Origin: a bacterium
GTDB taxonomy: Bacteria > Patescibacteriota > Minisyncoccia > Phycocordibacterales > UBA9973
Assembly: GCA_037143195.1 (NCBI GenBank)
Contig: JBAWZD010000003.1
Coordinates: forward strand, 5,333 to 69,332
Length of the DNA: 64,000 bases
Direction of reading: 5' to 3'
In this document: in pieces, positions 24,956 through 57,913 of the stretch
How the letters are laid out: each line of letters begins with the position of its first letter
How positions within the stretch are numbered: position 1 is the first letter of the stretch
Translations under genes and position numbers: made by a program
Notes under the pieces: generated by a model
Told to the model about the DNA's origin: nothing
What the model saw: only the letters and a program-made list of their open reading frames with translations
Database searches by the model: none

Positions 24956-25322
24956 TGTAGCTTACAACCTGCTGTGGGGAAAGAAATCCGTTTTCAGTCA
25001 AAGACACAGTACAGGTGAGGGGCAAAATAAATAACCGGCTGTCCACTTAGATGAACAACCGGTGTTTTTCTCCTCTTGTCACTTCATCGCTCTTTGGATG
25101 AAGTCTTCTGTGGGTCGAGGAGAGAATATGCCCAAAGCTGATGCTAATCTAACATAATAAATGACCCATGCAAATATGGGTCATTTTACTGCGGAGGACC
25201 GTTGAGGCTGTTAGAACTTGGTATGAGGGACAAAGTGTGCCGATCTATGTGCCAAAGTTGGGTAAACTAACTCATTAATATTCAGAAAATCCTTATAACA
25301 AAAGGGTTTTATTAAATATATA

Positions 25323-26425: not shown

Positions 26426-26515
26426 ATTATGGCTTGGATATTGTTTGAGATATCTAGGTTCGAATCTCACTCTCTGTGTCGAAATCCAACCATATTTTAC
26501 AAACTTCAAAATCTG

Positions 26516-26602
26516 CGGAGGCGGTGAGATTCGAACTCACGGTACCCTTTCGGATACGACAGTTTTCAAGACTGTTGCCTTCAACCACTCAGCCACGCCT
26601 CC
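26516..26602 (-). tRNA. tRNA-Ser (anticodon TGA)
   Basis: 87-nt cloverleaf on the minus strand. Acceptor GGAGGCG/CGCCTCC, anticodon stem ACAGT/ACTGT, loop CTTGAAA, long variable arm, T-arm GAGTTCGAATCTC. Confidence 0.75.
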
Positions 26603-33438: not shown

Positions 33439-33459
33439 GGTTGTTTAAAAATCGTCAGG

Positions 33460-33531
33460 TGCCCCCGCGAGGAATCGAACCTCGAATAGCGGCTTAGAAG
33501 TCCGCAGTTATATCCATTTAACTACAGGGGC
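33460..33531 (-). tRNA. tRNA-Arg (anticodon TCT)
   Basis: Cloverleaf with acceptor GCCCCTG/CGGGGGC, D-stem GTTA/TAAC, anticodon loop CTTCTAA and T-arm CGAGG-TTCGATT-CCTCG. Confidence 0.65.
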
Positions 33532-33600
33532 GAATGGGCACAGTGGTAGCATACAAAAAACGCTCGTATTTAGCTAGCTACCGCTTGAGTACAGTTCGGG

Positions 33601-33673
33601 TGCGCGATGAGGGACTTGAACCCCCGACCTTCTAAGTGTAAATTAGTTGCTCTACCAACTGAGCTAATCGCGC
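33601..33673 (-). tRNA. tRNA-Val (anticodon TAC)
   Basis: Acceptor GCGCGAT/ATCGCGC, D-arm GCTC-AGTTGGTA-GAGC, anticodon loop TTTACAC, T-arm GGGGG-TTCAAGT-CCCTC. Confidence 0.7.
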
Positions 33674-33761
33674 GTACAAAGTACTCTACCAGAAAAAAAC
33701 AAAAAGTTCAATAGATATATAGACCTTTGATAAACACATACATATATACTATACTCTAGTA

Positions 33762-34439
33762 ATGAAAATCGTAGAGCGAGATAGGGCTATTTCGCTTCGG
33801 AAGAAGGGCCTTACTATTAATGAAATTGTTGCAGAAACTGGCTATTCGAAGGCGAGCGTTAGTGTTTGGGTACGAAATATACCTCTTACTGAAAAACAAA
33901 AAAATCGAATTTCAGAAAAAGGTCGAAGTCTCGCGTCGATTGAACTTCGTCGGACCTCTCGTTTAGCAAATGAGAGAAAAAAGAAAGAAATTGTGCGAGA
34001 TAGTGCTAAAAATGAGATTCGGGGATTTTCTCACCGCGACCTTTTGGTTGCTGGTGCCATGCTGTATCTCGGAGAGGGGACGAAGAAATCGAAAGGTAGG
34101 GCAAGTATTACGAATGCAGACCCTGAGGTTATCCAAATGGCCGTCCGGTTTCTTGTAGATATATGTGGTGTTCCTCACGGAAGACTTTATGGGCATATTC
34201 ATATCCACTCACATCTCGACATAAAACGAGCAGAGATGTATTGGTCAAAAGTGTCTGGCATACCTCGTGCCCAATTTTACAAAACGTATTGCAAGAAAAG
34301 TGTTGCTTCTCTTAACAAAAAAGACAGCTTACCGTACGGGACCATTGAAGTCGGCACAAACGACATAAAAATTTTCTTGAAAATAATGGGTTGGATTGAA
34401 AAAATTAAAGAATTGGCGATAGGTGCAAAAATTTCCTAA
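33762..34439 (+). CDS. HTH-containing protein with a LAGLIDADG-like motif (possible homing-endonuclease-like)
   Basis: N-terminal resolvase-type HTH 'LRKKGLTINEIVAETGYSKASVSVW'. Central 'LLVAGAMLYLGEGTK' resembles a LAGLIDADG motif. Adjacent to two tRNAs. Confidence 0.3.
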   Translation: MKIVERDRAISLRKKGLTINEIVAETGYSKASVSVWVRNIPLTEKQKNRISEKGRSLASIELRRTSRLANERKKKEIVRDSAKNEIRGFSHRDLLVAGAMLYLGEGTKKSKGRASITNADPEVIQMAVRFLVDICGVPHGRLYGHIHIHSHLDIKRAEMYWSKVSGIPRAQFYKTYCKKSVASLNKKDSLPYGTIEVGTNDIKIFLKIMGWIEKIKELAIGAKIS

Positions 34440-34459
34440 AACCCATATACTGTCCCTAT

Positions 34460-35257
34460 ATGGAACACACAGAATACCTTCCGTTTGCGCTCGACCTTGC
34501 TCGCGATGCTGGTGGCATCATGCGACAAAATTTCATGCTCGGCATGAAGAAAGAATGGAAGAGTGATGCGACACCGCTCACCGAGACAGATACCAAAATT
34601 CACACACTCGTGTGTGATTCAATTGCGCGTGCATTCCCAACTCACTCCGTGCTCTCCGAAGAGGGGGACGAAGCAGCCAAAACTCCAACGACTGAATATG
34701 TGTGGGTGTGTGATCCTGTCGACGGGACGCACAATTTTGCGCACGGTATTCCGACTGCGACATTTGCACTCGCACTTGTGCAGAACGGCAAACCAATCGT
34801 CGCCGTCATTTACGATCCATTCATGGACCGACTTTTCTACGCCGAAAAAGGCAAAGGTGCATTCATGAACAACAAGCAGATACATGTTTCTGACAATCCG
34901 ACAGTCAAAAAGACCGTGATTGGTATCGGCAAATGGTCAAACGACACTACAAATCTTTTTCCTGTTGGCGAACAATTGCGCGAACGTGGTGTGCGTCTTG
35001 TGACGGGACTTTCGATTGATTACATGGGAGCACTTGTCGCTGCAGGAGAATTTTCTGCGACAATTTTCGGGGGGCTGTCTCCTTTTGACACAGTCGCAAT
35101 TCAGCTTCTAGTGGAGGAGGCAGGGGGCAAGGCAACAGACCTTACAGGAGGCACTGTAGAGCGCTACGATCGGGAAGTTCCAGGACAGCTTGCGACGAAT
35201 GGATTGGTTCACGATGAGATTTTGCAACTCATAAAGGAATATGGAGCACGAGCCTAA
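34460..35257 (+). CDS. Inositol monophosphatase family protein (SuhB-like)
   Basis: 'WVCDPVDGTHNFAHG' IMPase motif and 'GGKATDL'. Confidence 0.8.
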   Translation: MEHTEYLPFALDLARDAGGIMRQNFMLGMKKEWKSDATPLTETDTKIHTLVCDSIARAFPTHSVLSEEGDEAAKTPTTEYVWVCDPVDGTHNFAHGIPTATFALALVQNGKPIVAVIYDPFMDRLFYAEKGKGAFMNNKQIHVSDNPTVKKTVIGIGKWSNDTTNLFPVGEQLRERGVRLVTGLSIDYMGALVAAGEFSATIFGGLSPFDTVAIQLLVEEAGGKATDLTGGTVERYDREVPGQLATNGLVHDEILQLIKEYGARA

Positions 35258-36041
35258 AATCGAAGTGACTATCCCAATCCTCTACGAGGATGCGTATTGT
35301 ATGTGTATCAACAAGCCTGCGGGCCTTGCGGTACATGGAGATGGAAAGGCAAATGAGTTCACGCTTGCAGATTGGATTCTTGAATATCATCCAACACTCG
35401 CGCCTGTCGGTGAACCACTTCGAGTGCGGATTGGTGGGGAAGAGATTACGGTGCCGAAGCCAGGGATTGTGCATCGCCTCGACAAAGATACCTCCGGAGT
35501 CATGGTGCTCGCAAAGACTCACGCAGCATATGAATTCTTCAAACAACAGTTTCAAGAACGAGAGATACAAAAAATGTATCTCGCCTTTGTGTATGGGTGG
35601 ATCAAAGAAGATGCGATGGAGATTACGGGATCGATTGGCCGTGATTCGAGCAACATTAGACGATGGACTGTTTCCAAAAATGCGCGTGGAACTTTGCGTG
35701 AAGCTATAACAAACATCCGTGTGTTGAAACGATTTGGTCATTCTGCGAATGGTCATGAATATGACGGCAAGGGAAGTACCGAAGAGGGAACGTTTTCTCT
35801 CGTTGAGGCTCGACCAAAGACCGGCCGTACGCATCAAATTCGCGTGCATATGCGCTCCGTAAACCATCCTATCGTCGGAGATTCACTGTATGCGCCTAAG
35901 CGTGGTGAAGGGCTCGGCTTCGTACGCCAGGCACTTCACGCGCGCGAGCTTACGCTCGCGCTCCCGTCCGGTCAAACCATTACCGTGCAAGCCCCGTTCC
36001 CCGAAGACTTCCAAAAAGCCCTCGAGGTTGCAAATGCATAA
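35241..36041 (+). CDS. RluA-family pseudouridine synthase
   Basis: Catalytic motif '[15 protein letters not shown]'. 'GRTHQIRVH' motif. Confidence 0.8.
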
Positions 36042-36477
36042 GCAGTGTGTTAAAGTACGCCCTGTTATGGCATTACAGCTCACACCAGTAAAAAAAGCAG
36101 ATCGCACAGCAGTCGATTTTTCTTCAGGCGACACAGTGCGCGTCTGGGTCAAAATTCCTGAAAAAGGCAAATTTCGCCTCCAGGCTTTTGAAGGTCTCGT
36201 ACTTGCTCGCAAGCACGGCACAGAAATCGGCGCGACGTTCACAGTCCGCAAAGTAGCTTCAGGTGTTGGAGTAGAGCGTATCTTTCCTCTCTTCTCACCA
36301 ATGATTGATTCAATCGAGGTCATCAAGCGTTCCGGTGCTCGCCGCAGTAAACTTTACTACGTTCGAGAGAAGGCAGTCCGCGACATCCGCAAGAAAATGA
36401 AGAGTGTCCGCGTCGTCGCAAGTGACGAAGCAGATGTTCCGGAAGTCGAGGCAGTAGCCGAGAAAGCAGAAGCCTAG
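36034..36477 (+). CDS. rplS: 50S ribosomal protein L19
   Basis: '[40 protein letters not shown]...[16 protein letters not shown]' is the L19 signature. The start is uncertain (36034 or 36067). Confidence 0.8.
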
Positions 36478-36511
36478 TATACTAGGAAAGCTGTCCGCAA
36501 GGATGGCACAT

Positions 36512-36595
36512 GCGCAGGTGGCGAAACTGGTAGACGCACTACCTTGAGGTGGTAGCACCCGCAAGGGTATGGAAGTTCAAGTCTTCTCCTGCGCA
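36512..36595 (+). tRNA. tRNA-Leu (anticodon GAG)
   Basis: 84 nt. Acceptor GCGCAGG/CCTGCGC, anticodon stem CTACC/GGTAG, loop TTGAGGT, long variable arm, T-arm GGAAG-TTCAAGT-CTTCT. Confidence 0.75.
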
Positions 36596-36810
36596 CATAA
36601 ATGAAAAACCGCACAGATTTATCTGCGCGGTTTTTCATTTACTCTGGGCTAAGGCAAGGCGAGCCAACTGCTTGGCTCGCCCGAAGACTTGAAAGCCGCA
36701 GCGATGCCGCCTTGGCGGCCGCGAGGCGGGGTCGCGAACACTTAGTCCGCACAGGGCGTAATCGCCCGAGCAGACTTAGTGATTCGTGACCAAGTCTTCT
36801 CCTGCGCACA
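36578..36810 (+). repeat. 20-bp perfect direct repeat of the tRNA-Leu 3' end (36578-36597 and 36791-36810) bracketing a 193-bp GC-rich insert
   Basis: 'caagtcttctcctgcgcaca' occurs twice. The intervening segment is about 60% GC versus about 47% in the surroundings and contains several perfect hairpins. Confidence 0.7.
36604..36635 (+). terminator. Hairpin terminator immediately 3' of tRNA-Leu
   Basis: AAAAACCGCACAGAT..ATCTGCGCGGTTTTT. Confidence 0.5.
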
Positions 36811-48398: not shown

Positions 48399-48471
48399 GG
48401 TGCCTATGGTGTAACGGTTAACACAGAGGTTTGTGGAACCTTTAATTCGAGTTCGATTCTCGATAGGCACC
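48399..48471 (+). tRNA. tRNA-His (anticodon GTG)
   Basis: G-1 plus acceptor GTGCCTA/TAGGCAC, D-arm GTGT-AACGGTTA-ACAC, anticodon loop TTGTGGA, T-arm TCGAG-TTCGATT-CTCGA, discriminator C. Confidence 0.75.
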
Positions 48472-49956
48472 CCTATCAGGGCATTCTGCCCAATTTAATA
48501 GCTCGTTGAATGGAGAACGTATTGTAAACTCTAGGTTTTTTGCCTGTACAGTCGGGTTCTGAAGTAGATAATTCAAGAATGCTCGTTTTTCGCTTGGTTC
48601 GGAACTTTCAAATATATCCCTTGAGCGTCGAGCCAATGAACACACTGTTGCTACAGTTGTTTGGTAATCATGGTCACCCCTACTGTGTTCTTCAAGTTCG
48701 CGGTTCAAGAGCTGAATGCTGTTGTAGTACTGTTGATGCTTTTTGTCGTACACCTCTTTCGTTATATTTTTGTCCAAAAATGCTTCAAGTAGATTATCGT
48801 CCCTTTGCTTTGTGCGCTCATACTCAGCGTTTATACGGGCAAGTTGTGCCTTGTGAAAGATAGTCTCTGCCTCAGTCGTTTTACGCAGTTCCTGAACGAT
48901 GTATGCTTGGTCTTTTGCTGTAATTTTTTCAAGTCGGTCAAAGACTTCGTACACGGTTTCTAGCAGTGAACTTTCTGAAACATAAGTACGCTGGCAGTTT
49001 CCTTTTCCGTTCGTACATGAGTAATATACAAAAACCAGACCGCTTTTTTTCTGGTGCATTTCTGGTGTCATTGAACAACCGCAATCTTTGCAGGTTAATA
49101 GAGCCTTGAAAATAAAATCTTTTGAAACAAACTTTGGACGATTGTTACACTTCTTGTTTTTAATTTCTTGGCATTTATCAAAAAGCTCCTTGTTGATAAG
49201 GCATTGATACTTATGTGAGTAGGGAGGGTATTTTGCAGACTGAGCTACTCCATAATAAAAAGTATCGTTCAAAATATTTTCGATACAACTTCTTGGGGGA
49301 GTAAGCCCGCCAGAACTTTTTAATCCCATTCTTATTGCTTCACGAAGAAGGGTCTCGAGTGAATAGTTGCCAGTTGAATATAATTCAAAGAGTCTTACTA
49401 TGATAGATGCTCTTTCTGGGTCTGGAATAATGTTTTTCTTTCCATCGATATCTGTAGTACGAATATATCCTAGGGGTGGTTTGCTTGGATATACACCTTC
49501 GCGCCTCATTTTTTCATATGCACGCTTTACGTTGTCACTAATTGAGTTTGAATAATACTGAGCAAGACTAACAGCGATATTGAAATGGAATAGGTCTGTT
49601 GCTGGCGAATCCTTATGAAGGATGAGATTGTCTGACGGAAAATGAAGTTCAATTTTCCCGTCTCGTCGGAGTTTTTCAAGCGTTGGTAGTCCTACCAAAA
49701 AATCACGGGTAAGTCGGTCTACTTTGTCGCAACAAAATGCGACGACCTCTTTTTGTGAGACGATATAGGCAACTACATTATCAAATTCTTTTCGGTGTTC
49801 TTTGTAGGCTGATTCATCGAAAATATACTCCATATCAAGTATAAGTTGTGGTTTGCGCTCAATGTACGAACGTAGACGGTCTTGTTGGGCTGGTAGAGAG
49901 TTACCAGCCTCTTTTTGTTCCTCAGTCGATACTCTCGCTAGTATTATTGCTTTCAT
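48442..49956 (-). CDS. Large serine recombinase (integrase)
   Basis: N-terminal resolvase catalytic domain 'MKAIILARVSTEEQ...' with the Ser nucleophile context. Recombinase domain. Zn-ribbon 'CKDCGCSM...YYSCTNGKGNC'. Coiled-coil. The last about 9 codons overlap the 3' half of tRNA-His. Confidence 0.85.
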   Translation of the reverse strand: MKAIILARVSTEEQKEAGNSLPAQQDRLRSYIERKPQLILDMEYIFDESAYKEHRKEFDNVVAYIVSQKEVVAFCCDKVDRLTRDFLVGLPTLEKLRRDGKIELHFPSDNLILHKDSPATDLFHFNIAVSLAQYYSNSISDNVKRAYEKMRREGVYPSKPPLGYIRTTDIDGKKNIIPDPERASIIVRLFELYSTGNYSLETLLREAIRMGLKSSGGLTPPRSCIENILNDTFYYGVAQSAKYPPYSHKYQCLINKELFDKCQEIKNKKCNNRPKFVSKDFIFKALLTCKDCGCSMTPEMHQKKSGLVFVYYSCTNGKGNCQRTYVSESSLLETVYEVFDRLEKITAKDQAYIVQELRKTTEAETIFHKAQLARINAEYERTKQRDDNLLEAFLDKNITKEVYDKKHQQYYNSIQLLNRELEEHSRGDHDYQTTVATVCSLARRSRDIFESSEPSEKRAFLNYLLQNPTVQAKNLEFTIRSPFNELLNWAECPDRGAYRESNSN

Positions 49957-49960
49957 TTAG

Positions 49961-50137
49961 TTATCTTGTGCTTGTTTCTTTTAAGAAATCGTTAAAGCTT
50001 TTTTTGTCTATCCTAAAATCTCGCCCAATTTTGTGTGCTTTCAAGCGACCAGCTTTTATATAACGGTAGATTGTCATAATATTTACCTCAAGTAACTGGG
50101 CGAGCTCCTCGGCACGATAAAATTCTTTATCTTTCAT
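49961..50137 (-). CDS. Excisionase/MerR-like HTH DNA-binding protein (putative recombination directionality factor)
   Basis: 58-aa ORF 'MKDKEFYRAEELAQLLEVNIMTIYRYIKAGRLKAHKIGRDFRIDKKSFNDFLK' ending 4 nt before the recombinase start. Too short to appear in the ORF track. Confidence 0.5.
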   Translation of the reverse strand: MKDKEFYRAEELAQLLEVNIMTIYRYIKAGRLKAHKIGRDFRIDKKSFNDFLKETSTR

Positions 50138-50161
50138 CTATTAAGTATACTTTACACTGCT

Positions 50162-50302
50162 TTACATTGCAATTTTACTTTTTGAGGCTTTGTGTTCAAC
50201 GACTTGTTCTGAAATTAACGGATTGTAATATTCATTAATCAAATTTTTGAGGTCTTGATGAGATTTTTTTACTCCGCTAAGTGTCTTTTTATTGTCTTTC
50301 AT
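50162..50302 (-). CDS. Small hypothetical protein (46 aa)
   Basis: ORF 'MKDNKKTLSGVKKSHQDLKNLINEYYNPLISEQVVEHKASKSKIAM'. Same strand and tight spacing with the flanking small genes. Confidence 0.3.
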   Translation of the reverse strand: MKDNKKTLSGVKKSHQDLKNLINEYYNPLISEQVVEHKASKSKIAM

Positions 50303-50308
50303 TGTTTG

Positions 50309-50503
50309 TTATTTACATTCTGGCTGATAATTTTTTATGCACTTACTAATCATGTGTATCCAGTGAGGTGGAATTACTTTTACTGGGTAGAGTTCTGGGT
50401 TTACTCGCTTATCGACCTTGAGGAGTAATTCAAAGAAACCCACAAGAACTCGCTTTTCTTGCGGATTGAGTTTGCTAAGTGAACTTTCTGACTCAGTACT
50501 CAT
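50309..50503 (-). CDS. Small hypothetical protein
   Basis: 64-aa ORF in the island, co-directional with the recombinase. Confidence 0.35.
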   Translation of the reverse strand: MSTESESSLSKLNPQEKRVLVGFFELLLKVDKRVNPELYPVKVIPPHWIHMISKCIKNYQPECK

Positions 50504-50512
50504 TTACTAAAT

Positions 50513-50767
50513 TTATTCTCGCCTTGAGCGATTTTCACTACTAAAATCGCCCGCTACACGCTTGTTTGTGAGAAGGTACAAATGGTCAATCAATGCTTTC
50601 GTGTCCGACCTTTCGTATTCATCACGAGGAATCAATTTTTTGAATGCAGGCACAAGACACTTTCGAGAAAATCCTCGAGTCTTAACTGCTTCAGCAAGAC
50701 AGATAAATGCACCCCAGCATGGCTGGCGTTTTTCTTGTTCTGTAAATCTTGCTTTGATACTTCTCAC
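50513..50767 (-). CDS. Small hypothetical protein
   Basis: 84-aa basic ORF in the island. Confidence 0.35.
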   Translation of the reverse strand: MRSIKARFTEQEKRQPCWGAFICLAEAVKTRGFSRKCLVPAFKKLIPRDEYERSDTKALIDHLYLLTNKRVAGDFSSENRSRRE

Positions 50768-51064
50768 GTCAGAAATCGTAGCAAACGACCTTTTTAGAAA
50801 AATGAAAAAGTGGGGATTACTTTTTTTCTAGTAAAAAAACCTTAAAAATGTATAATAAAAATACAATTTAATAGATTAGACCTAAACTCATTCGGCAACG
50901 AGTGAGCATGGTTAATGAAGTCAAGAGATGCATAAAGAACCCATCAAAATTGGGGTTGCATCTCTTGCCGTATCTGGAAACGGATACGGAGGGTCTAATA
51001 GCCCTCACCTTATTTTGGTGGGCTTTTTGCGTCTATATCAAGGATTATTAATTAACTCAAAGTT

Positions 51065-51955
51065 ATGAATAAGAAAAAAATAAGTGTTGGCTTAATTGTA
51101 TTATCGCTTGCAGTTTTAACTATTCCCCAAGTTACTTTTGCTTCATGGTGGAATCCATTTAGCTGGAGTATTTTCCACAAGAAGTCAGTCGCAACACAAA
51201 CGGTCCCGACCATTCCAAGCTCGTCACAGACGACAGCGACAAAGCCACTGAGCGACGACTATAGCGTACTAGCAAAAAGATATGGCGGTAACCAAACCCA
51301 AGCGCAAAAAGTTGTTCCAGTGACCGTATCCGCAGTGACAGAACCAGAGGACATTACCGCATACCGTAAACAAACTGATTCGGCTTACGCTGATGAAATC
51401 AATAAATTCAACATTGCTCTTGTCGTCGAAAGTGTGCCGAAGAATTTTATAGACAGCAAAATTTCTGAATTAAATGACGATATTACACAAGGTCAGGGAT
51501 TTAAGCTTGGCAATCCAAATTCTGCCGAAGCGGTTGATTATATGGCTACTGTTTACAATAATCAGTTAGAGTTTGAAAAAAAGTATTTCGATGCTGAAGC
51601 ATCTATTATTAAATGGATACAGGATTCTAAAAATAATATGGAGGCATCAAAATCAAAGCTTTCTACTTTGAACACGAAAGAACAGATAGATAACGAGGTT
51701 CAGAAAATTAAATTTTACGATGACAATTTAGCACAGGCTCAGAATTCATCAAAAAAGTGGAGTGATACTTCACACTCAACACAGGTTAAAATTGATGGCA
51801 TAATCGCTGGACTATCAAGCTATTACTCATCAGGAGTAGCTTCAAATAATGCACCATCAATTAATGTAACCTACCCTCAAACTTTTTTGCCAACAAGTTT
51901 CAATTGCACAAGTAGCAAAGATGTTCTTGGGGGTGTTCAGACTCAGTGCTACTAA
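51065..51955 (+). CDS. Secreted hypothetical protein
   Basis: Signal peptide 'MNKKKISVGLIVLSLAVLTIPQVTFASW'. 296 aa. AT-rich. Confidence 0.5.
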   Translation: MNKKKISVGLIVLSLAVLTIPQVTFASWWNPFSWSIFHKKSVATQTVPTIPSSSQTTATKPLSDDYSVLAKRYGGNQTQAQKVVPVTVSAVTEPEDITAYRKQTDSAYADEINKFNIALVVESVPKNFIDSKISELNDDITQGQGFKLGNPNSAEAVDYMATVYNNQLEFEKKYFDAEASIIKWIQDSKNNMEASKSKLSTLNTKEQIDNEVQKIKFYDDNLAQAQNSSKKWSDTSHSTQVKIDGIIAGLSSYYSSGVASNNAPSINVTYPQTFLPTSFNCTSSKDVLGGVQTQCY

Positions 51956-52037
51956 AGTCATAAACCTGTAGGACCATTCAATTTAATTTGTATGAGTATG
52001 GTTATGTCGCAGGTAAATCGCTTTCCTGTCGCTGTTG

Positions 52038-52469
52038 TTAATGGGGAATACCTAGTGTGGTGAGGTCAACTATCGGCTCAGGTAGCTGGTCGAACGCCAG
52101 CTTCATATTTTTCGTTACTCGATTGTTCACACGATTGTATTCACGAATTGCTCCAAGCTTTGCACTCAAATCTTCTTTTTGGACAATGAGCCACGCAAGC
52201 TCGGAATCTACCGCCTTCTCGTCAATCAGTTCATTCAGGAGGTCTTGTATACGCTTGATAATGTCATCATTTCTCATCAATCGTGAACCAGACACGGCGC
52301 AGTAATGTTTGAGCCTGTCCTTTTTCTCAGTGCTCTCTAAAGCCTCAAAATCGTGTCCATAGGCTTCTGAATATGAAAGAGTGGCATTACCGAAGGTTGT
52401 TCCAGTTCTGGTGTACGCACGACAAAATAGCTCTTGTTCAGTATTTATATTTTTTGTTTCTTCGTTCAT
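52038..52469 (-). CDS. Phage terminase small subunit (P27/Terminase_2-like)
   Basis: N-terminal 'EQELFCRAYTRTGT...ATLSYSEAYG' pattern typical of the terminase small subunit. 143 aa. Confidence 0.55.
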   Translation of the reverse strand: MNEETKNINTEQELFCRAYTRTGTTFGNATLSYSEAYGHDFEALESTEKKDRLKHYCAVSGSRLMRNDDIIKRIQDLLNELIDEKAVDSELAWLIVQKEDLSAKLGAIREYNRVNNRVTKNMKLAFDQLPEPIVDLTTLGIPH

Positions 52470-52928
52470 TCTTTGTGTATTTCCTTCAATCTATGCTTAG
52501 TGTATCCAATTCTCACCTCTACTCCACCAACTTATCAGGTTGAGACAGAAACGCCCTCTAGCCCTAATAAACTAGATTGATTTAGTGTGCATTTGGTCCG
52601 TTGTATCTCGGTACACACTCACGCAATTCTCTAACCTCTCCAAAACTAGGGGGAACTCCCACATCATCGTTTCTCTTGAAGCCGTACTCCGCAAAACTCA
52701 ACGCATGTTCAATGTAAAGTCTTGTGCGATGGGGAAGCTCATCAGTATATCGACAGTTTCCGCCCTCATCCCCGAATTATATCTTGGTTTCAAATCAGGC
52801 TCGGGTTTCGCCACCTGAATCATTTGTATATTATACCACATTTTGCTCAAAACACGAAATAATGGTCTAATTGTTTACATTATCGAATATTTACGTTAAC
52901 CTTAATCGGAGGCTAGAACATAAAAAAT

Positions 52929-54176
52929 ATGCAAACATTTGGATTTATAAAGAACTGGAAATACTTGGACGAGAAGGTTGCAGATGAGGACTTGCTAGAA
53001 ATGTCAGAAGAAGTCGAAGCTTTTTCTGTAAGATTGAACTCACTTAAACCGAATACTATATTAGGTTTTGTCGGCAAATTCGGTATTGGCAAAAGCACGC
53101 TTTTAAAAAAGGTTCAAAAACAGAGACTTCAAGCTGGTAATAACGAAAAATGGATACTATTTGAAGCATGGCAATTCCCAGACCGAAAAGACCTTTGGGA
53201 CGGACTAGTGCTTGAAACAGCAAGACAAGTAGGTGAAGCACAGCTAAAACGTACAAAAACTGAATTAGATGGAACTGGAGGTGGAACGAAAAAGGCACTA
53301 ATCTCAATTGCAAGTACTGTTTTAAGTGCCGTCAACCCATTGTTTGGAGCTATAAGCGGTCTTGAAAATTTCGTTAATAATTCTCCCTCTCGACGAGTAT
53401 TTGAGATTCAGGAAGTGTTCAAGGGAATTTTAGAAAAAATTGAAGAACAAACAGTAATTTTTGTTACCGAAGATGTAGACCGTTCTGGTCCAGCAGGAAT
53501 TTTTTTCTTAGAAACATTTAAACAATTCTTAAGTACGCTTGAAACGAAGAAGAAAATTATAGTTATTTCTCCTGTGGCAGAGAGTAGTTTTAATGAGCAT
53601 GTAGACGCATTCCTCAAATGTTTAGATTTTGTCGAGTTTTACTCAAAGCATAAAAAAGTGAGTCTTAGAAAATTCGTGAATGAGATACTTATCGACCAGA
53701 ATGAAAATAAGGTTGTTACTGATTTTTTACAGTACTTGTTTGTAGAACATCCTGATTTGACGATGCGAAAAATTAAGTTGATTCTAAGACAAGCAAATCA
53801 GAGTTTTTATGATTTAAAAAATTCTGGCTACAAACCCGATTATTTGGTTTGCATTTCAGTGAGTGCTTCAAAATATATATTATTTGATAAGGAAAGGGAA
53901 ATTTCATACTTTGATAGTTTTGTAAGTCGGGGTTGTTTTGTCCAAAATAATGAGTTTAATCGATTGATTTGCATGACAAGCTCAAATATAAGAGGGAGTA
54001 ATATCGGCTTCCTTGATAGCGATGGAAACCTAGGAAAAACAACCGATATTTATTTTTCAAAACGTGACACACCAGAGAATGATAAATCTTTTCCCTCAGT
54101 TCTGACTCTTGCATCGTATGGCTTCGAGTTCGACGGTACAGCAAGAAATTATATTCCTGATTTTTATCTAGCATAG
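52929..54176 (+). CDS. KAP-family P-loop NTPase
   Basis: Walker A 'GKFGIGKSTLL' followed by the KAP-typical 'WILFEAWQFPDRKDLWDGLV'. Walker B 'VIFVTEDVDR'. 415 aa. Confidence 0.6.
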   Translation: MQTFGFIKNWKYLDEKVADEDLLEMSEEVEAFSVRLNSLKPNTILGFVGKFGIGKSTLLKKVQKQRLQAGNNEKWILFEAWQFPDRKDLWDGLVLETARQVGEAQLKRTKTELDGTGGGTKKALISIASTVLSAVNPLFGAISGLENFVNNSPSRRVFEIQEVFKGILEKIEEQTVIFVTEDVDRSGPAGIFFLETFKQFLSTLETKKKIIVISPVAESSFNEHVDAFLKCLDFVEFYSKHKKVSLRKFVNEILIDQNENKVVTDFLQYLFVEHPDLTMRKIKLILRQANQSFYDLKNSGYKPDYLVCISVSASKYILFDKEREISYFDSFVSRGCFVQNNEFNRLICMTSSNIRGSNIGFLDSDGNLGKTTDIYFSKRDTPENDKSFPSVLTLASYGFEFDGTARNYIPDFYLA

Positions 54177-54199
54177 ATTTTATCTTCCTATTAAACAAA

Positions 54200-54949
54200 A
54201 TGAATTTTTTACACCAGCTATATTACTTATTTGTGTATTTAGCTAATTTCGTTTTTAGAAAAAATATTCTTCATGAGCTAGTTAGTAGTATCACTGTGCT
54301 CATTTCTGTACTGATTCCTTACCTGCTTGTGCGTTATGAAAAAGTTTTTGCGATTAACAAGGATTATCGGGATTTTTTATCACAAGCCGACGTGTATACT
54401 TTGGAATGGTTGAGTGTAACGAATTACAATATTCGTATAATTGATGAATTTCTCGAAGTACTTGCGAAACCTGACGGGGTATATGCGAAAGATTTTCAGT
54501 TTTATGATTTTCCACCGATTGGATTTTTCCGAACCTATAATAGTCAGCTTCTTAATGAATTTTATTTTCAGGTGCGCGGAATTAAGGACCTTGAACATCA
54601 TCTAAAGATGGTAAGTTCAGAATATCTGGCTTATAAACGAATGAGAAGTAATAGAGACGCTATTTTGCCTACGAATGGAAATCATTTTTTTATATTGACA
54701 ATTACGAACGTAAAAGAAAGATTGCCAGAGATTATTGAGGAAATAAAGAATTTGAGAATTAGGGTAAGTCTCTTATTGAGCGAGGTGAACAGGACTGACT
54801 CGCTCAGTATGAAGAAATTCTTTAGTTTTGGTCAAAAAAACAGGCTATGGTATAAGAAGGACCTTCAGTTTACTCTCGAGGAGATTAAGACAGAAGAAAA
54901 GAAATTAGAGGATAGAGACAGTGAAGCCATGGTAAAAAAAAGTTTTTAA
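54200..54949 (+). CDS. Hypothetical membrane-anchored protein
   Basis: Two N-terminal TM helices then a soluble domain. Starts 24 nt after the KAP NTPase stop. Confidence 0.45.
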   Translation: MNFLHQLYYLFVYLANFVFRKNILHELVSSITVLISVLIPYLLVRYEKVFAINKDYRDFLSQADVYTLEWLSVTNYNIRIIDEFLEVLAKPDGVYAKDFQFYDFPPIGFFRTYNSQLLNEFYFQVRGIKDLEHHLKMVSSEYLAYKRMRSNRDAILPTNGNHFFILTITNVKERLPEIIEEIKNLRIRVSLLLSEVNRTDSLSMKKFFSFGQKNRLWYKKDLQFTLEEIKTEEKKLEDRDSEAMVKKSF

Positions 54950-55134
54950 TCAACAAGCTTTTTCATAAGAATAAATTTGGAAAATTTCGAGAAGAGACTT
55001 TGTGTCAGTGGTAATAGCTTTCCAATCTAAAGTTCTGAATGTGTCCAACAAGCGACCCCAATTAGGAATTGAACTAAAATATCCCTTAACCACGGGGATT
55101 TTTTAGTTCTAACCAAGACTGATATACTTCTCAT

Positions 55135-55974
55135 GTGGAACCAAAAGAGCAAAATATGACACCAGGCCAAATGGCGATTGAAGGTTTGTATCTTATGCCT
55201 GGGATGCAGATCAGATTGGTAAAGTTAGAGGCTGGTAAAGACTCACATATTTCCGTTGGAACAAGTCTAGAGGGAGTACTCGATGCAGATGTACGTATCG
55301 GTCAGCCTATTTACCTCGACGGAAAAACAAAAAACACGAGCCGAATACAAGCCGTAAAAAAGGACGGTGATAGGGTTTTTTTAAAAACCGAAACTTCAGT
55401 TTACGAGCTTGTTCCTCCAACCTCCGATGGATCAAGCGAGCCTAAATCAAAAGAACGCATAGAGCTTGAACATACAATTGAGACTCTCTTGAAAGAAGTT
55501 CAAGCCAATGCTGTTGATGAAAAAATAGTCGGCAGTTTAATTGAGCGACGCCACCAGTTGGGCAGACAAGAAAAAACTGATGCCTCGAAGATCGAGCTTC
55601 AGAAAATCGATACCGAACTAGAAAAACATATTGTTACGGTAAAAACGATAGCCGAGTTTAAGTTGCTCATGGAAAAGATCGGTAGAAATTATTATGCCGT
55701 TATGGGTACTGTCGCGCATGAAAATGCTCACGCGAATATGGCGAGTTCTCTCGGTGCGATCCATTCAGGGTATTCTCTTCTTGTTACTCGAAAAGGGAAT
55801 GACTTTAGCTATCAGCCCATTGCTCTTACGAATGTTAGGGGTGAATGGGATAAAAAAGACCAACTTGAGGCTAATATCAAAATCGCTGGTGCTCCTAAAG
55901 AATATGGTAACAAGCTTTCGCCTGGAGATGAGGAAATGATTGCATCTCTCCGAAAACAGCTTAACAATCTTTAA
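55135..55974 (+). CDS. Hypothetical protein with an HExxH motif (putative zinc-dependent hydrolase)
   Basis: 'TVAHENAHANMAS' contains H-E-x-x-H. Coiled-coil N-terminal half. 279 aa. Confidence 0.4.
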   Translation: MEPKEQNMTPGQMAIEGLYLMPGMQIRLVKLEAGKDSHISVGTSLEGVLDADVRIGQPIYLDGKTKNTSRIQAVKKDGDRVFLKTETSVYELVPPTSDGSSEPKSKERIELEHTIETLLKEVQANAVDEKIVGSLIERRHQLGRQEKTDASKIELQKIDTELEKHIVTVKTIAEFKLLMEKIGRNYYAVMGTVAHENAHANMASSLGAIHSGYSLLVTRKGNDFSYQPIALTNVRGEWDKKDQLEANIKIAGAPKEYGNKLSPGDEEMIASLRKQLNNL

Positions 55975-56239
55975 TTTACAAGTCCATTTAAGTTCGGAAT
56001 ATAGATTGTAGCGTCTTTTCTGCTCAAAAATTGTTCCATCTTGGGATACTTTGTTTTCATGCCGAGGTCCTCAGTTATACATCCAGAGCACCTATACTTG
56101 TCGCTTGGTGAACGAAAGCTTGTTGTTGAAATATAGCGCCTTTAGCGACAAATATTGACAGAGCTCATTTATTGTGAATAATTAATCTTGTTAGATTACA
56201 AGCATAATTCATATCGATGCGATATGATTAATTTACTCT

Positions 56240-57913
56240 ATGAACTTTTGGAACAATCCCGAAAATAATGCACTAAAAATGTTGCTCGCAGTAGCTGTGA
56301 TTTTGTTCGCAGGTTTTTTTGTCTACAAACATTTTCATACGAACTCACTCGCTGGCAAAGGTCTTGTACTAGGGACAGGAACAACCACTTGGACAAAGCA
56401 GCTCGCATCAGGACCGCATACTATATATGGAATGGCTGGGTCTTCAGATGGAAACAAACTTGTCTTTGTTGAAATGGGCGGATACGCGTATACCTCAATT
56501 GATGCGGGGGTCAGTTGGACCGCGCGTACAAGTTCAACAATCCAAGACTGGAGAAGCGTTGCCTCTTCGGCCGACGGTACAAAACTCATTGCCGCAGCAC
56601 ATGGTGCATACTTGTATACTTCGGCAGACAGCGGTGCTACATGGGTCGCTCAAACAGGGAGCGGATTGCGTGATTGGAGCTCTGTTGCCTCTTCGGCTGA
56701 CGGAACAAAATTAGTTGCAACTGATGTGCGAACTGGTGGGTATATATATACTTCAACCGATAGTGGAGTTCATTGGACTCAACGTATCTCAGTGCCCGGC
56801 TCCAATTGGTGGAGCGTTACTTCATCAGCAGATGGCCTGCGACTTGCAGCGGTCGACAATAGGCCAACTGGTGTGGTTCATATGTCCACCGATGGAGGTG
56901 TTTCATGGACAGATCATGCAATCCCAGGAGCAACATTGATTTCATATAAAGCAATAACGTATACAAGTGATGGAGTGAAGATCGCCGTGGGGGATATCAG
57001 TAACAAACTTTACACTTCCGTATATCCGTTTACTACATGGACAGAGAGAGATCCACTCGGGGCACCATGGGCTGCACTCGCGTATTCTGGCGACGGGTCA
57101 AAGCTTCTCGCTGCGACATCTGACGGCAAACTTTTTCTTTCTACCAATGATGGTGCTGATTGGACCGAAGAAGCTTCTGCTGGAATACACACATGGATGG
57201 CAGGTAGCCTCACCGCATCGTTTAACGGATCAAATCTTGCAGCCGCAGCGGACTATGTCTGGACCAACACGAGCGGTACCATTGATGGCACTAGCCCTGT
57301 TGTCACAACGCTTCCTGCAACGGGAATTACCGTACTCGGTGGAGTTGTTTTGAATGGTCGTTTGAACCTCATGGGAAGTGCTCCGACGGTAACTGTCGGT
57401 TTCAATTACGGAACAACGACCGCATATGGAACGACAACCACAGTTCCAGCACCTCGAACAACTGTCGGTGTATTTACGAATCCATACACGATCACGGGTC
57501 TTCTGTGTGGAACGACGTACCATGTGCAAGCTTTTGCAGTAAGTTCAGCGGGTACTTCATATGGAGCCGATGTCCCATTTACCACGGTTGCGTGTGCTGT
57601 TCACACTGTAGTTGCTCCAACTGTCGTGACAAATCCAGCAAGTTCAATTTCTCGAACGGGAGCAACATTGAATGGTAATCTCACTTCACTTGGGGGAGCA
57701 ACGACAACGACTGTCGGATTCCAACTTGGTACAACTACAACGTACGGTACGACAATGACCGTGACAGCTCCACGAACGAGTGCCGGTACATTCACGAATC
57801 CAACAACTATCAGCACACTCATCCCAAATACGCTCTATCACTATCGTGCGTTTGCGACCAATTCGGCCGGCACAGTATATGGTGCTGACGTTACATTTAC
57901 GACACTGCGATAA
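56240..57913 (+). CDS. Membrane-anchored/secreted BNR-repeat (sialidase-like beta-propeller) protein with two C-terminal Fn3-like modules
   Basis: N-terminal TM helix. At least 4 BNR/Asp-box repeats (S-x-D-x-G-x-T-W: 'SIDAGVSWT', 'SADSGATWV', 'STDSGVHWT', 'STDGGVSWT'). C-terminal duplicated module homologous to the 20845..21633 protein. Confidence 0.65.
   Translation: MNFWNNPENNALKMLLAVAVILFAGFFVYKHFHTNSLAGKGLVLGTGTTTWTKQLASGPHTIYGMAGSSDGNKLVFVEMGGYAYTSIDAGVSWTARTSSTIQDWRSVASSADGTKLIAAAHGAYLYTSADSGATWVAQTGSGLRDWSSVASSADGTKLVATDVRTGGYIYTSTDSGVHWTQRISVPGSNWWSVTSSADGLRLAAVDNRPTGVVHMSTDGGVSWTDHAIPGATLISYKAITYTSDGVKIAVGDISNKLYTSVYPFTTWTERDPLGAPWAALAYSGDGSKLLAATSDGKLFLSTNDGADWTEEASAGIHTWMAGSLTASFNGSNLAAAADYVWTNTSGTIDGTSPVVTTLPATGITVLGGVVLNGRLNLMGSAPTVTVGFNYGTTTAYGTTTTVPAPRTTVGVFTNPYTITGLLCGTTYHVQAFAVSSAGTSYGADVPFTTVACAVHTVVAPTVVTNPASSISRTGATLNGNLTSLGGATTTTVGFQLGTTTTYGTTMTVTAPRTSAGTFTNPTTISTLIPNTLYHYRAFATNSAGTVYGADVTFTTLR

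Follow-up and report, generated by a model that had tools for sequence, protein, structure and literature searches.

A small integrative element at tRNA-His of a patescibacterium, with a probable attachment site inside its own serine integrase gene

The DNA considered here is a stretch of 64,000 nucleotides, hereafter the window, from a member of the Patescibacteria (GenBank assembly GCA_037143195.1, contig JBAWZD010000003.1, positions 5,333 to 69,332 of the forward strand). Near position 48,400 it carries a tRNA-His gene whose 3' half is overlapped, on the opposite strand, by the end of a gene for a large serine integrase, and beyond the integrase lie several small genes, an RNA, a set of cargo genes and, at the far end, an isolated run of 34 codons that reads as the lost C-terminus of the same integrase (Table 1). 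We are confident, short of certainty, that positions 48469-55059 are an integrated 6.6-kb copy of a small integrative element that is specific to Patescibacteria and has its attachment site, attP, within the open reading frame (ORF) of its own integrase. Both junctions, the in-frame reconstruction of the gene, the recurrence of the arrangement across a family, a case of two copies in tandem, and a circle whose integrase gene is intact are established at the level of sequence and are described in the following sections.

The tRNA-His locus and the two ends of the island

As read from the sequence, tRNA-His has its G-1 at 48399 and its C73 at 48471. The integrase gene ends 30-32 nt deep in the 3' half of this tRNA (stop at 48442-48444), on the opposite strand, and its 3' end is the antisense of the T-arm and the acceptor stem; residues 1-496 of the protein are encoded by the element, and the last eight (AYRESNSN) come from antisense tRNA-His. 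The initial annotation of this DNA had already proposed that the end of the ORF is read from the 3' half of tRNA-His, and ARAGORN, Rfam, and the position of the stop all agree with it. It had also proposed an attachment site overlapping the end of the integrase gene, an idea that stands in a sharper form, i.e., attP lies inside the ORF and the last 34 codons have been moved 6.6 kb away.

The island extends from about 48469 to 55059, or 6586 bp, and differs in composition from its surroundings. Its GC content is 0.375 (48474-55054), versus a mean of 0.455 (standard deviation 0.012, minimum 0.435) over 88 other 6.6-kb segments of the same sequence, and the drop, from about 0.45 to 0.34-0.41, covers 49-56 kb; the lower GC content remarked upon initially is thereby confirmed. 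The right-hand limit of 56239 given at that time has to be corrected, because the junction is at 55055-55059 and ORF 55171..55974, to judge by its homologues, is a host gene outside the island. In other Patescibacteria, these homologues (46-52% identical) have genes for aminoacyl-tRNA synthetases and ribosomal proteins as neighbours.

Regarding the junctions themselves, attL (ACCCCTATCAGG) and attR (ACCCCAATTAGG) are identical at 10 of 12 positions, and the crossover is placed within the five identical bases ACCCC because the positions flanking them differ. On the minus strand, attL reads ...CCT GAT AGG GGT/GCC TAT CGA... and attR reads ...CCT AAT TGG GGT/CGC TTG TTG..., where the slash, here and below, marks the junction. 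A generic repeat search, together with a search for a 21-mer of the tRNA-His 3' end, returned no att repeat, and the 21-mer occurs once in the window even with three mismatches; the shared core is only 5 nt long.

Both parental sites can be rebuilt in silico. The integrase body joined to the 34-codon tail gives an uninterrupted ORF of 530 amino acids, and when tRNA-His is joined to what lies right of attR, the product is a tRNA-His with an encoded CCA end. The bases to the right of the attR core are the original downstream flank of tRNA-His. The host junction, attB, then becomes GATAGGCACCCC/AATTAGGAATTG and the attP junction CCTGATAGGGGT/CGCTTGTTGGA or, in a second rendering, ...TCTCGATAGGCACCCC/AATTAGGAATTGAAC... 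and ...GCAGAATGCCCTGATAGGGGT/CGCTTGTTGGACACATTC..., respectively. Read on the minus strand, 55093..54950 translates to VVKGYFSSIPNWG/RLLDTFRTLDWKAITTDTKSLLEIFQIYSYEKAC followed by a stop, and the reading ...IPNWG/RLLDTFRTLDW... matches the C-termini of full-length members of the family; over 18 residues the tail is 78% identical to that of a relative, L165 (L numbers denote the loci and elements used for comparison). The hairpin that follows attR is interpreted as the native terminator of tRNA-His, which the insertion would have displaced. Homologues of the right-flank gene found elsewhere do not adjoin tRNA-His, and synteny revealed no empty site.

The integrase has the composition of a large serine recombinase, namely a resolvase-type catalytic domain (Resolvase PF00239, 1.3e-18, residues 3-155), a recombinase domain (Recombinase PF07508, 6.5e-8), and a zinc ribbon into which a coiled coil is inserted (Zn_ribbon_recom PF13408, 2.4e-8), and among the PHROG profiles it matches the integrase family phrog_95 at 2e-65. 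Residues R8, V9, S10, and T11 are invariant in alignments of 23 and of 34 homologues, as are Cys289, Cys292, Cys294, Cys314, and Cys321 in the alignment of 23, and the window integrase retains every family-invariant residue. An AlphaFold2 (AF2) model of the reconstructed 530-residue protein has a mean predicted local distance difference test score (pLDDT) of 80.8 and contains long helices at 347-394 and 400-451. Searched with Foldseek, it matches the integrases of SPbeta, Bxb1, PhiC31, and LI with E values of 4e-19 to 1e-12 at identities of 13-17%, over the full length for the first three (about 540-630 aligned columns) and over the C-terminal domains for LI. In this model the crossover falls in a short linker (492-498), after the last confident helix (483-491).

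Table 1. Features of the element, its target tRNA, and its junctions, in window coordinates
Feature	Position	Strand	Evidence or remarks
tRNA-His(gtg), integration target	48400..48473	+	ARAGORN; Rfam tRNA 62.1 bits at 48400-48471
Large serine integrase, integrated (truncated) form, 504 aa	48442..49956	-	Pfam, phrog_95, AF2 fold
attL junction	48469..48480		Core ACCCC 48469-48473, identical in attR; wider imperfect repeat ACCCCTATCAGG
Excisionase-family HTH protein (HTH_17), 58 aa	49961..50137	-	Pfam PF12728 5e-13; NCBIfam excisionase domain TIGR01764 47.5 bits vs 28.8 cut-off
46-aa ORF	50162..50302	-	At the place of the relatives' ~376-aa core gene, which it does not resemble
Small core protein of the element family, 64 aa	50309..50503	-	tblastn matches in 26 loci
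84-aa ORF	50513..50767	-	No relatives in the loci
LOOT RNA (RF03000)	50879..51006	+	Rfam 76.8 bits vs 46.4 gathering score, model positions 1-121 of 121
Cargo protein, 296 aa, N-terminal signal-like hydrophobic segment	51065..51955	+	Translation
Cargo protein, 143 aa, N-terminal part TerS DNA-binding-like (weak)	52038..52469	-	phrog_51 1.6e-8, residues 4-90
P-loop NTPase, borderline KAP family, 415 aa	52929..54176	+	Pfam KAP_NTPase PF07693 21.0 bits vs 20, E 2.3e-4
Cargo ORF, 249 aa, downstream of the NTPase	54200..54949	+	43% identical homologue inside the L078 element
Orphaned integrase 3' end, 34 codons (RLLDTFRTLDWKAITTDTKSLLEIFQIYSYEKAC) and stop	54950..55054	-	tblastn, regex, translation; in frame with the integrase after excision
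attR junction	55055..55066		Core ACCCC 55055-55059; imperfect repeat ACCCCAATTAGG
Terminator-like hairpin and T-run	55081..55105	+	Terminator scan: 6-bp stem then TTTTTT; 22 nt past attR

A family of elements in Patescibacteria

A homologue search, with scoring confined to the 8000 candidates that had most words in common with the query, returned at least 2735 relatives of the integrase at E < 1e-20. The best of them are 50-81% identical, and those of the best that are named belong to Patescibacteria, i.e., the Candidate Phyla Radiation (CPR). From GTDB genomes, 79 loci were fetched and their tRNAs called by ARAGORN. The integrase stop lies 12-64 nt inside a tRNA on the opposite strand in 48 of them, and the target is mostly tRNA-Asn(gtt), with His, Leu(caa), Asp, and Gln also represented. 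A further 13 of the 79 have the integrase gene abutting a tRNA 3' half that can be followed up to the anticodon loop, after which come the R and S elements, or their likes, of a group I intron. Rfam confirmed Intron_gpI in all three of the loci that were submitted to it (55-88 bits; L020 6464-6734, L026 11543-11823, L079 7139-7428), and the sequence points to tRNA introns in L010, L024, L038, L039, L041, L057, L059, L062, L072, and L076. ARAGORN misses the tRNA-Asn-like genes of the 13 loci apparently because introns interrupt the anticodon loop, and the idea that the ARAGORN-negative loci are copies in the attP state was dropped, most of them having a tRNA 3' half with group I intron-like elements. 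Since it recurs across the fetched loci, the overlap of integrase and tRNA is a rule of the family and not a coincidence. In addition, many contigs break directly after the integrase gene, as expected for a population that is heterogeneous at this point.

In the alignment of 23 homologues, conservation ends at ...RSPFNLVLELA..P.WL. Past it, the C-termini are variable, with ...DSNQ, ...ESNSN, and ...ESNPD as frequent endings, which are antisense translations of the T-arm of a tRNA. Instead of entering a tRNA, the gene runs on for 23-45 residues in six loci, and this extension is conserved in half of the six (L051, L060, L044), e.g., ...PNWL/ALTDDFRTIDWAKEYPYPT... in L051. The motif D-x-F-R-T-x-[DN]-W of these tails recurs in many loci and in the window, 5-11 kb ahead of the integrase gene and on its strand, and orphan tails were located in 41 loci, again on that strand and 5.4-11 kb upstream. 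Over 22 such tails, the entropy at codon positions 1, 2, and 3 is 0.79, 0.55, and 1.19, respectively, and the periodicity persists in codons 21-31, which are 63-93 nt from the crossover and past any plausible att arm. As this codon periodicity shows, the orphan tails are maintained as coding sequence. In their first 8-10 codons the DNA itself may be under constraint too, and there the P arm (GGAC.AGTTCAGAAC) resembles the B arm, which is the T-arm of the tRNA (GGA.TCGAACC).

Where an element is delimited by both junctions, attL and attR share a short core only. At tRNA-Asn the core is GCTC/C, or GGAGC in the sense of the tRNA, and runs from the final bases of the acceptor stem through the discriminator to the first C of CCA; beyond it, attR shows no conservation in its host-side arm. 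Such a pattern would be expected of a serine integrase and not of a tyrosine integrase. A side observation concerns the encoded CCA, which is altered by integration: the integrated tRNA-His has CCT where the empty site, as rebuilt, carries CCA (48472-48474 vs 55058-55060), and in the tRNA-Asn elements CCA comes from the element arm (TGGCTC), many host flanks being devoid of it (TTGCTC).

The tRNA-His site of the window is also occupied in L001, L162, and L165, with different cargo, and closer relatives of the integrase (71% and 67% identity) share the same tRNA-His and the same Pterin_4a neighbour and have orphan tails 11.5 and 5.9 kb off. That relatives at one site differ in cargo indicates that the element is not ancestral, in line with the mobile island that had been proposed initially. 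The order of the neighbouring tRNA genes, i.e., Arg-tct, Val-tac, Leu-gag, and His (window 33458-36596 and 48400), is common to L001 and L070, and the distance between the His and Leu genes is 12 kb in the window and less than 6 kb in L001 and L070, so that the region between these two tRNAs is variable.

Further arrangements display the integrase gene with its own 3' end. In L069 (1-11485), two tandem units of 6441 bp that are 100% identical lie at tRNA-Gln, and the identity reaches the start of the fetched locus. The upstream integrase (519 residues) ends in the tail, the copy adjacent to the tRNA (494 residues) ends in antisense tRNA-Gln, and the two are identical over 1458 nt before they diverge exactly at the predicted crossover. 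L069 is either a true tandem array or the product of an assembler walking round a co-existing circle, and the latter would equally demonstrate the attP junction. The same tandem arrangement, built of two different elements, is found in L051. Regarding the free form, an integrase of 540 residues with the tail present (P0106) is encoded on three independently assembled contigs (6784, 6741, and 6697 bp). Each is a perfect circular permutation of the other two, and the 6784-bp contig has a 55-nt terminal repeat. They represent a free circle of 6729 bp (L167-L169) that codes in turn for the integrase, a protein of 216 residues, one of 385, the HTH protein, and one of 795. An attP-type junction is therefore present in both the L069 tandem and the L167 circle, and a full-length integrase with its tail occurs in 2 of the 120 best protein matches. 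The short contigs L177 and L178, which contain a core gene of the family, were considered as circles and rejected, both being integrated copies.

The core of the family was defined by clustering the ORFs of 42 delimited elements. It consists of the integrase, the 58-residue HTH protein (41 of 42), a protein of about 54-64 residues (40 of 42; 50309..50503 in the window), and a protein of about 376 residues (39 of 42). The HTH gene ends 4 nt before the start of the integrase gene, on the same strand, and its product, which is matched in 63 of the 79 loci and is 64-82% identical among its 40 best-matching loci, is more conserved in identity than the integrase itself. The profile matches listed in Table 1 bear out the excisionase-type HTH that the initial annotation had recognized just upstream of the integrase, and the protein is a candidate recombination directionality factor or regulator. 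The protein of about 376 residues has 1032 homologues at E < 1e-10, the best 120 of them at least 69% identical to the query, and it has no Pfam family at normal thresholds and no sequence match in the PDB. One UniRef entry is named 'Replication initiation protein', 1 of 22 members weakly matches Rep_trans PF02486 (E 0.002), and its AF2 model is poor (pLDDT 48.9); a role in replication is likely, with a rolling-circle initiator of the Rep_trans type as a candidate. L165 is devoid of this gene and has an HTH_36/DnaD_N-like protein at that place, which implies that the module is exchangeable. Directly upstream of the latter gene and within the element, L165 8169-8269 (+) matches the SAM riboswitch slightly over the gathering score (47.1 vs 44.4 bits); the match may be spurious or may mark an unusual leader with a regulatory role.

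The LOOT RNA of the window lies 58 nt upstream of the ORF for the secreted protein and is divergent from the integrase operon. It occupies the same relative position in L001 (7632-7765), L162 (6403-6525), and L165 (7806-7927), and a model built from these four copies retrieved it inside the delimited elements L067 (6703-6823) and L028 (4348-4489) and elsewhere in loci that bear the integrase (L051 2643-2769, L063, L040, L061, and L045). An ATG-initiated ORF follows 40-62 nt downstream in 9 of 11 cases, and its start is hydrophobic or signal-like in 8 of 11; this placement ahead of ORFs suggests a 5' leader rather than a free-standing small RNA (sRNA). In Rfam, LOOT has the sRNA gene type, whereas here it is a component of an integrative element, matched over its full length and with covarying stems.

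As for the cargo, the N-terminus of the protein after LOOT in the window is 48% identical to that of the ORF after LOOT in L051. The NTPase matches KAP_NTPase in its N-terminal half only and has weak PADLOC matches to PifA (1.8e-6) and QatA (1.2e-5), so a KAP module, as it was named initially, finds a profile one bit over its cut-off and remains borderline, with no support for a firm call; the protein is possibly a defence-type cargo. Across the family the cargo varies and is frequently of the defence type: L016 has a SocA/Panacea antitoxin besides a type II methyltransferase and its partner, L162 has RhuM, a transposase, and a protease, and L165 has Fic.

Two features of the window lie outside the element. 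The first, just past the island, is a protein of 557 residues (56240-57913, +) that begins with a membrane segment and contains BNR/Asp-box-like repeats, its gene having internal repeats at the DNA level (57392-57494 / 57710-57812 and 56546-56592 / 56672-56718); the initial annotation likewise left it out of the island. The second is a tail-like peptide, RTVEAVRTWYEGQSVPIYVPKL, at 25195-25260 (+), upstream of tRNA-Ser(tga) (26515-26602, -), which resembles the extension after the integrase in L040 (E 0.006, small database). A second element was considered there and set aside, no recombinase being found between the peptide and tRNA-Ser(tga), and the likeness is probably due to chance or, possibly, a very old scar.

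Proposed mechanism and competing explanations

In large serine integrases, attP-bound and attB-bound dimers synapse, a serine nucleophile cuts four strands at the central dinucleotide, one half rotates, and the ends rejoin. The resulting attL and attR are refractory to the integrase alone. In the reaction proposed for the window element, the integrase would recombine an attP located inside its own reading frame, 34 codons ahead of the stop, with an attB spanning the 3' end of tRNA-His, and the crossover would fall in ACCCC, which holds the discriminator between the last acceptor-stem bases and the first C of CCA. The serine nucleophile would make cuts staggered by 2 bp, and their central dinucleotide would have to lie in these five bases. 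Integration would leave the tRNA intact. At attL, residues 1-496 would be fused to the antisense tRNA, gaining eight unrelated codons and a stop in the T-arm, and it is this fusion that accounts for the overlap of integrase and tRNA seen in the initial annotation; at attR, the true 34-codon C-terminus would be left beside the original tRNA flank and its terminator. Excision would recreate the integrase of 530 residues.

With this exchange of C-termini, the full-length and the truncated integrase may differ in function. The conservation of the tail at the protein level and its intact survival in dozens of integrated copies suggest that it is used in the free element. The candidate roles of the exchange are a regulatory switch, a partial 'suicide' like that of the archaeal SSV-type integrases (PMC7253208), or the loss and gain of a dispensable appendage. 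A built-in state switch, in which the free enzyme of about 530 residues alternates with a tail-less integrated enzyme, is a tentative proposal that we hold somewhat more doubtful than probable. In such a switch, activity or directionality would be adjusted by the conserved tail of about 34-40 residues, for instance through a preference for attP x attB or through autoinhibition, and the tail-less enzyme with its arbitrary tRNA-encoded residues would either be competent for excision with the HTH protein or remain inert until a free copy supplies the full-length integrase.

Several results weigh against the reading of the island as an integrated element with attP in its integrase gene, or against parts of it. 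In the AF2 model, the tail forms two helices of low confidence (pLDDT 40-63). Exact 24-mers of the predicted attB and attP are absent from JGI metagenome contigs, and an exact look-up of the flanking VKOR gene led to a sole other contig, with the same arrangement. In a simple test on 36 elements, the dyad symmetry of attP was not above chance, with a complementarity of 0.19-0.31 at all centres. All genomes are metagenome-assembled, and the tandem of L069 could in principle be an assembler artefact. Finally, the window copy may no longer move alone, as the gene for the protein of about 376 residues is missing.

This last point leads to the best of the competing explanations, in which the element integrated as described and is now a dead relic, unable to replicate or move without that gene, its other genes being intact merely because the insertion is recent. 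We consider this unlikely, though it deserves a serious hearing. The window copy has no trace of a gene that is core to 39 of 42 elements, and no attB or attP junction was found in the public contigs searched. Against a relic stand the integrase, with all its family-invariant residues, and the HTH gene, the small core ORF, and the 34-codon tail, which are intact and in frame. Excision by large serine integrases, moreover, needs only the integrase and possibly a directionality factor, and L165 also lacks the gene and has the HTH_36/DnaD_N-like protein instead. The window copy, without its putative replication protein, is probably a non-autonomous derivative.

The initial annotation had favoured a different explanation, a degraded prophage or satellite-like island at 48399-56239, in which a terminase small subunit (TerS) would be a leftover packaging gene and the attachment site would merely abut the end of the integrase gene. 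The low GC content, the presence of an integrase with an excisionase-type HTH gene, and the match of 52038..52469 to phrog_51 could all be taken in this sense. Yet the TerS call stands only for the N-terminal 90 residues or so: the whole protein is below the cut-off of Pfam Terminase_2 (E 0.007, 17.4 bits vs 26.1), it has no sequence relative in the PDB, its gene is absent from the 79 loci and from all relatives, and no large terminase subunit (TerL) gene is present in the element. The Pfam and PHROG scans found no capsid, portal, or tail genes in the window element, a point on which the initial annotation was right, and none in the 42 delimited relatives either, nor were replication genes identified in any of them. 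In IMG/VR, full-length matches are at most 28% identical, apart from one 89-residue fragment at 49%. The absence of virion genes together with the lack of a close IMG/VR relative leaves the prophage or satellite without support. Moreover, the elements measure 5-11 kb and at least one of them is a free circle of 6.7 kb with five genes, and the right junction at 55055-55059 leaves ORF 55171..55974 to the host. We regard this explanation, which the mapping of attR already goes far to refute, as very improbable.

The weakest alternative, that the recombinase is a domesticated, fixed neighbour of tRNAs (a regulator or an invertase) within an ancestral island, could appeal to a family that is very common and conserved (at least 2735 homologues, 45-81% identity) and nearly always beside a tRNA, and it is next to untenable against target tRNAs that vary (Asn, His, Leu, Asp, Gln), cargo that varies between close relatives at one site, a strongly deviant GC content, tandem copies and a free circle, many contigs that break at the junction, and orphan tails under coding constraint.

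Relation to known systems and meaning for the Patescibacteria

The integrated element with attP in its integrase gene resembles several known systems in part. With the large serine integrases (PhiC31, Bxb1, SPbeta SprA, Listeria A118/LI, and TP901-1, together with the non-phage CcrB and XisF) it shares the order of the domains, the predicted fold, a very short att core without a long direct repeat, and a small accessory gene beside the integrase gene. It differs from them in the placement of attP within the integrase ORF, by which integration alters the protein, and in that it targets the 3' end of a tRNA, resides in Patescibacteria, and measures 5-11 kb without virion genes. To our knowledge, tRNA 3' ends are typical targets of tyrosine integrases and unusual ones for serine integrases.

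A closer parallel for the position of attP is offered by the archaeal SSV-type ('suicidal') tyrosine integrases, in which attP is in the integrase ORF, the target is a tRNA, and the gene is split to both ends of the element (PMC7253208; PMC8371274). The likeness extends to the partitioned gene and to a small circular free form. The SSV-type enzymes, however, are tyrosine recombinases of Archaea, as opposed to a serine recombinase of Bacteria (CPR), and because enzyme class and host domain differ, the present system is an analogue and not a member. In addition, the SSV-type enzyme is disrupted by a split that detaches a short N-terminal portion, whereas here the last ~34-40 residues are exchanged. 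Since only residues past the last folded element of the predicted structure are replaced, the integrated copy may remain active.

Islands of the Islander type, formed by tyrosine integrases (PMC4383910), likewise insert into tRNA 3' ends, keep the tRNA intact, and have the integrase gene adjoining the tRNA with the cargo beyond. The present elements differ by the lack of a tyrosine integrase and of a displaced tRNA fragment or long direct repeat, and only five bases are identical at the junctions. In the mycobacteriophages BPs and Brujita, integration-dependent immunity depends on an attP within a coding sequence, where the split gene encodes the repressor and the integrase is of the tyrosine type. 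As in these phages, integration changes the C-terminus of a protein of the element, and the integrated and free states thereby express different forms; in the present case, the split gene is that of the serine integrase itself and the regulatory consequence is hypothesised. A limited and incomplete search of the literature found no attP inside a serine integrase gene and no account of these CPR elements, and prior work is possible.

For the Patescibacteria, in which mobile DNA is poorly charted and genetic tools are few, these results define the exact ends, the att sites, and the free circle of a very common and seemingly undescribed element family. As their cargo includes restriction-modification, toxin-antitoxin, Fic, and KAP-like genes, the elements are likely vehicles of defence genes among the CPR, and the orphan LOOT RNA gains a genomic home in them. 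The family also offers natural attP/attB pairs by the dozen, all at conserved ends of tRNA genes, with a possible use in integrase-based engineering. Moreover, a serine integrase gene that is rewritten by its own integration turns the control of activity or direction by a C-terminal tail into a testable question, and the state switch, if true, would give the archaeal 'suicidal' integrases a counterpart among the serine recombinases of bacteria, and a widespread one within the Candidate Phyla Radiation.

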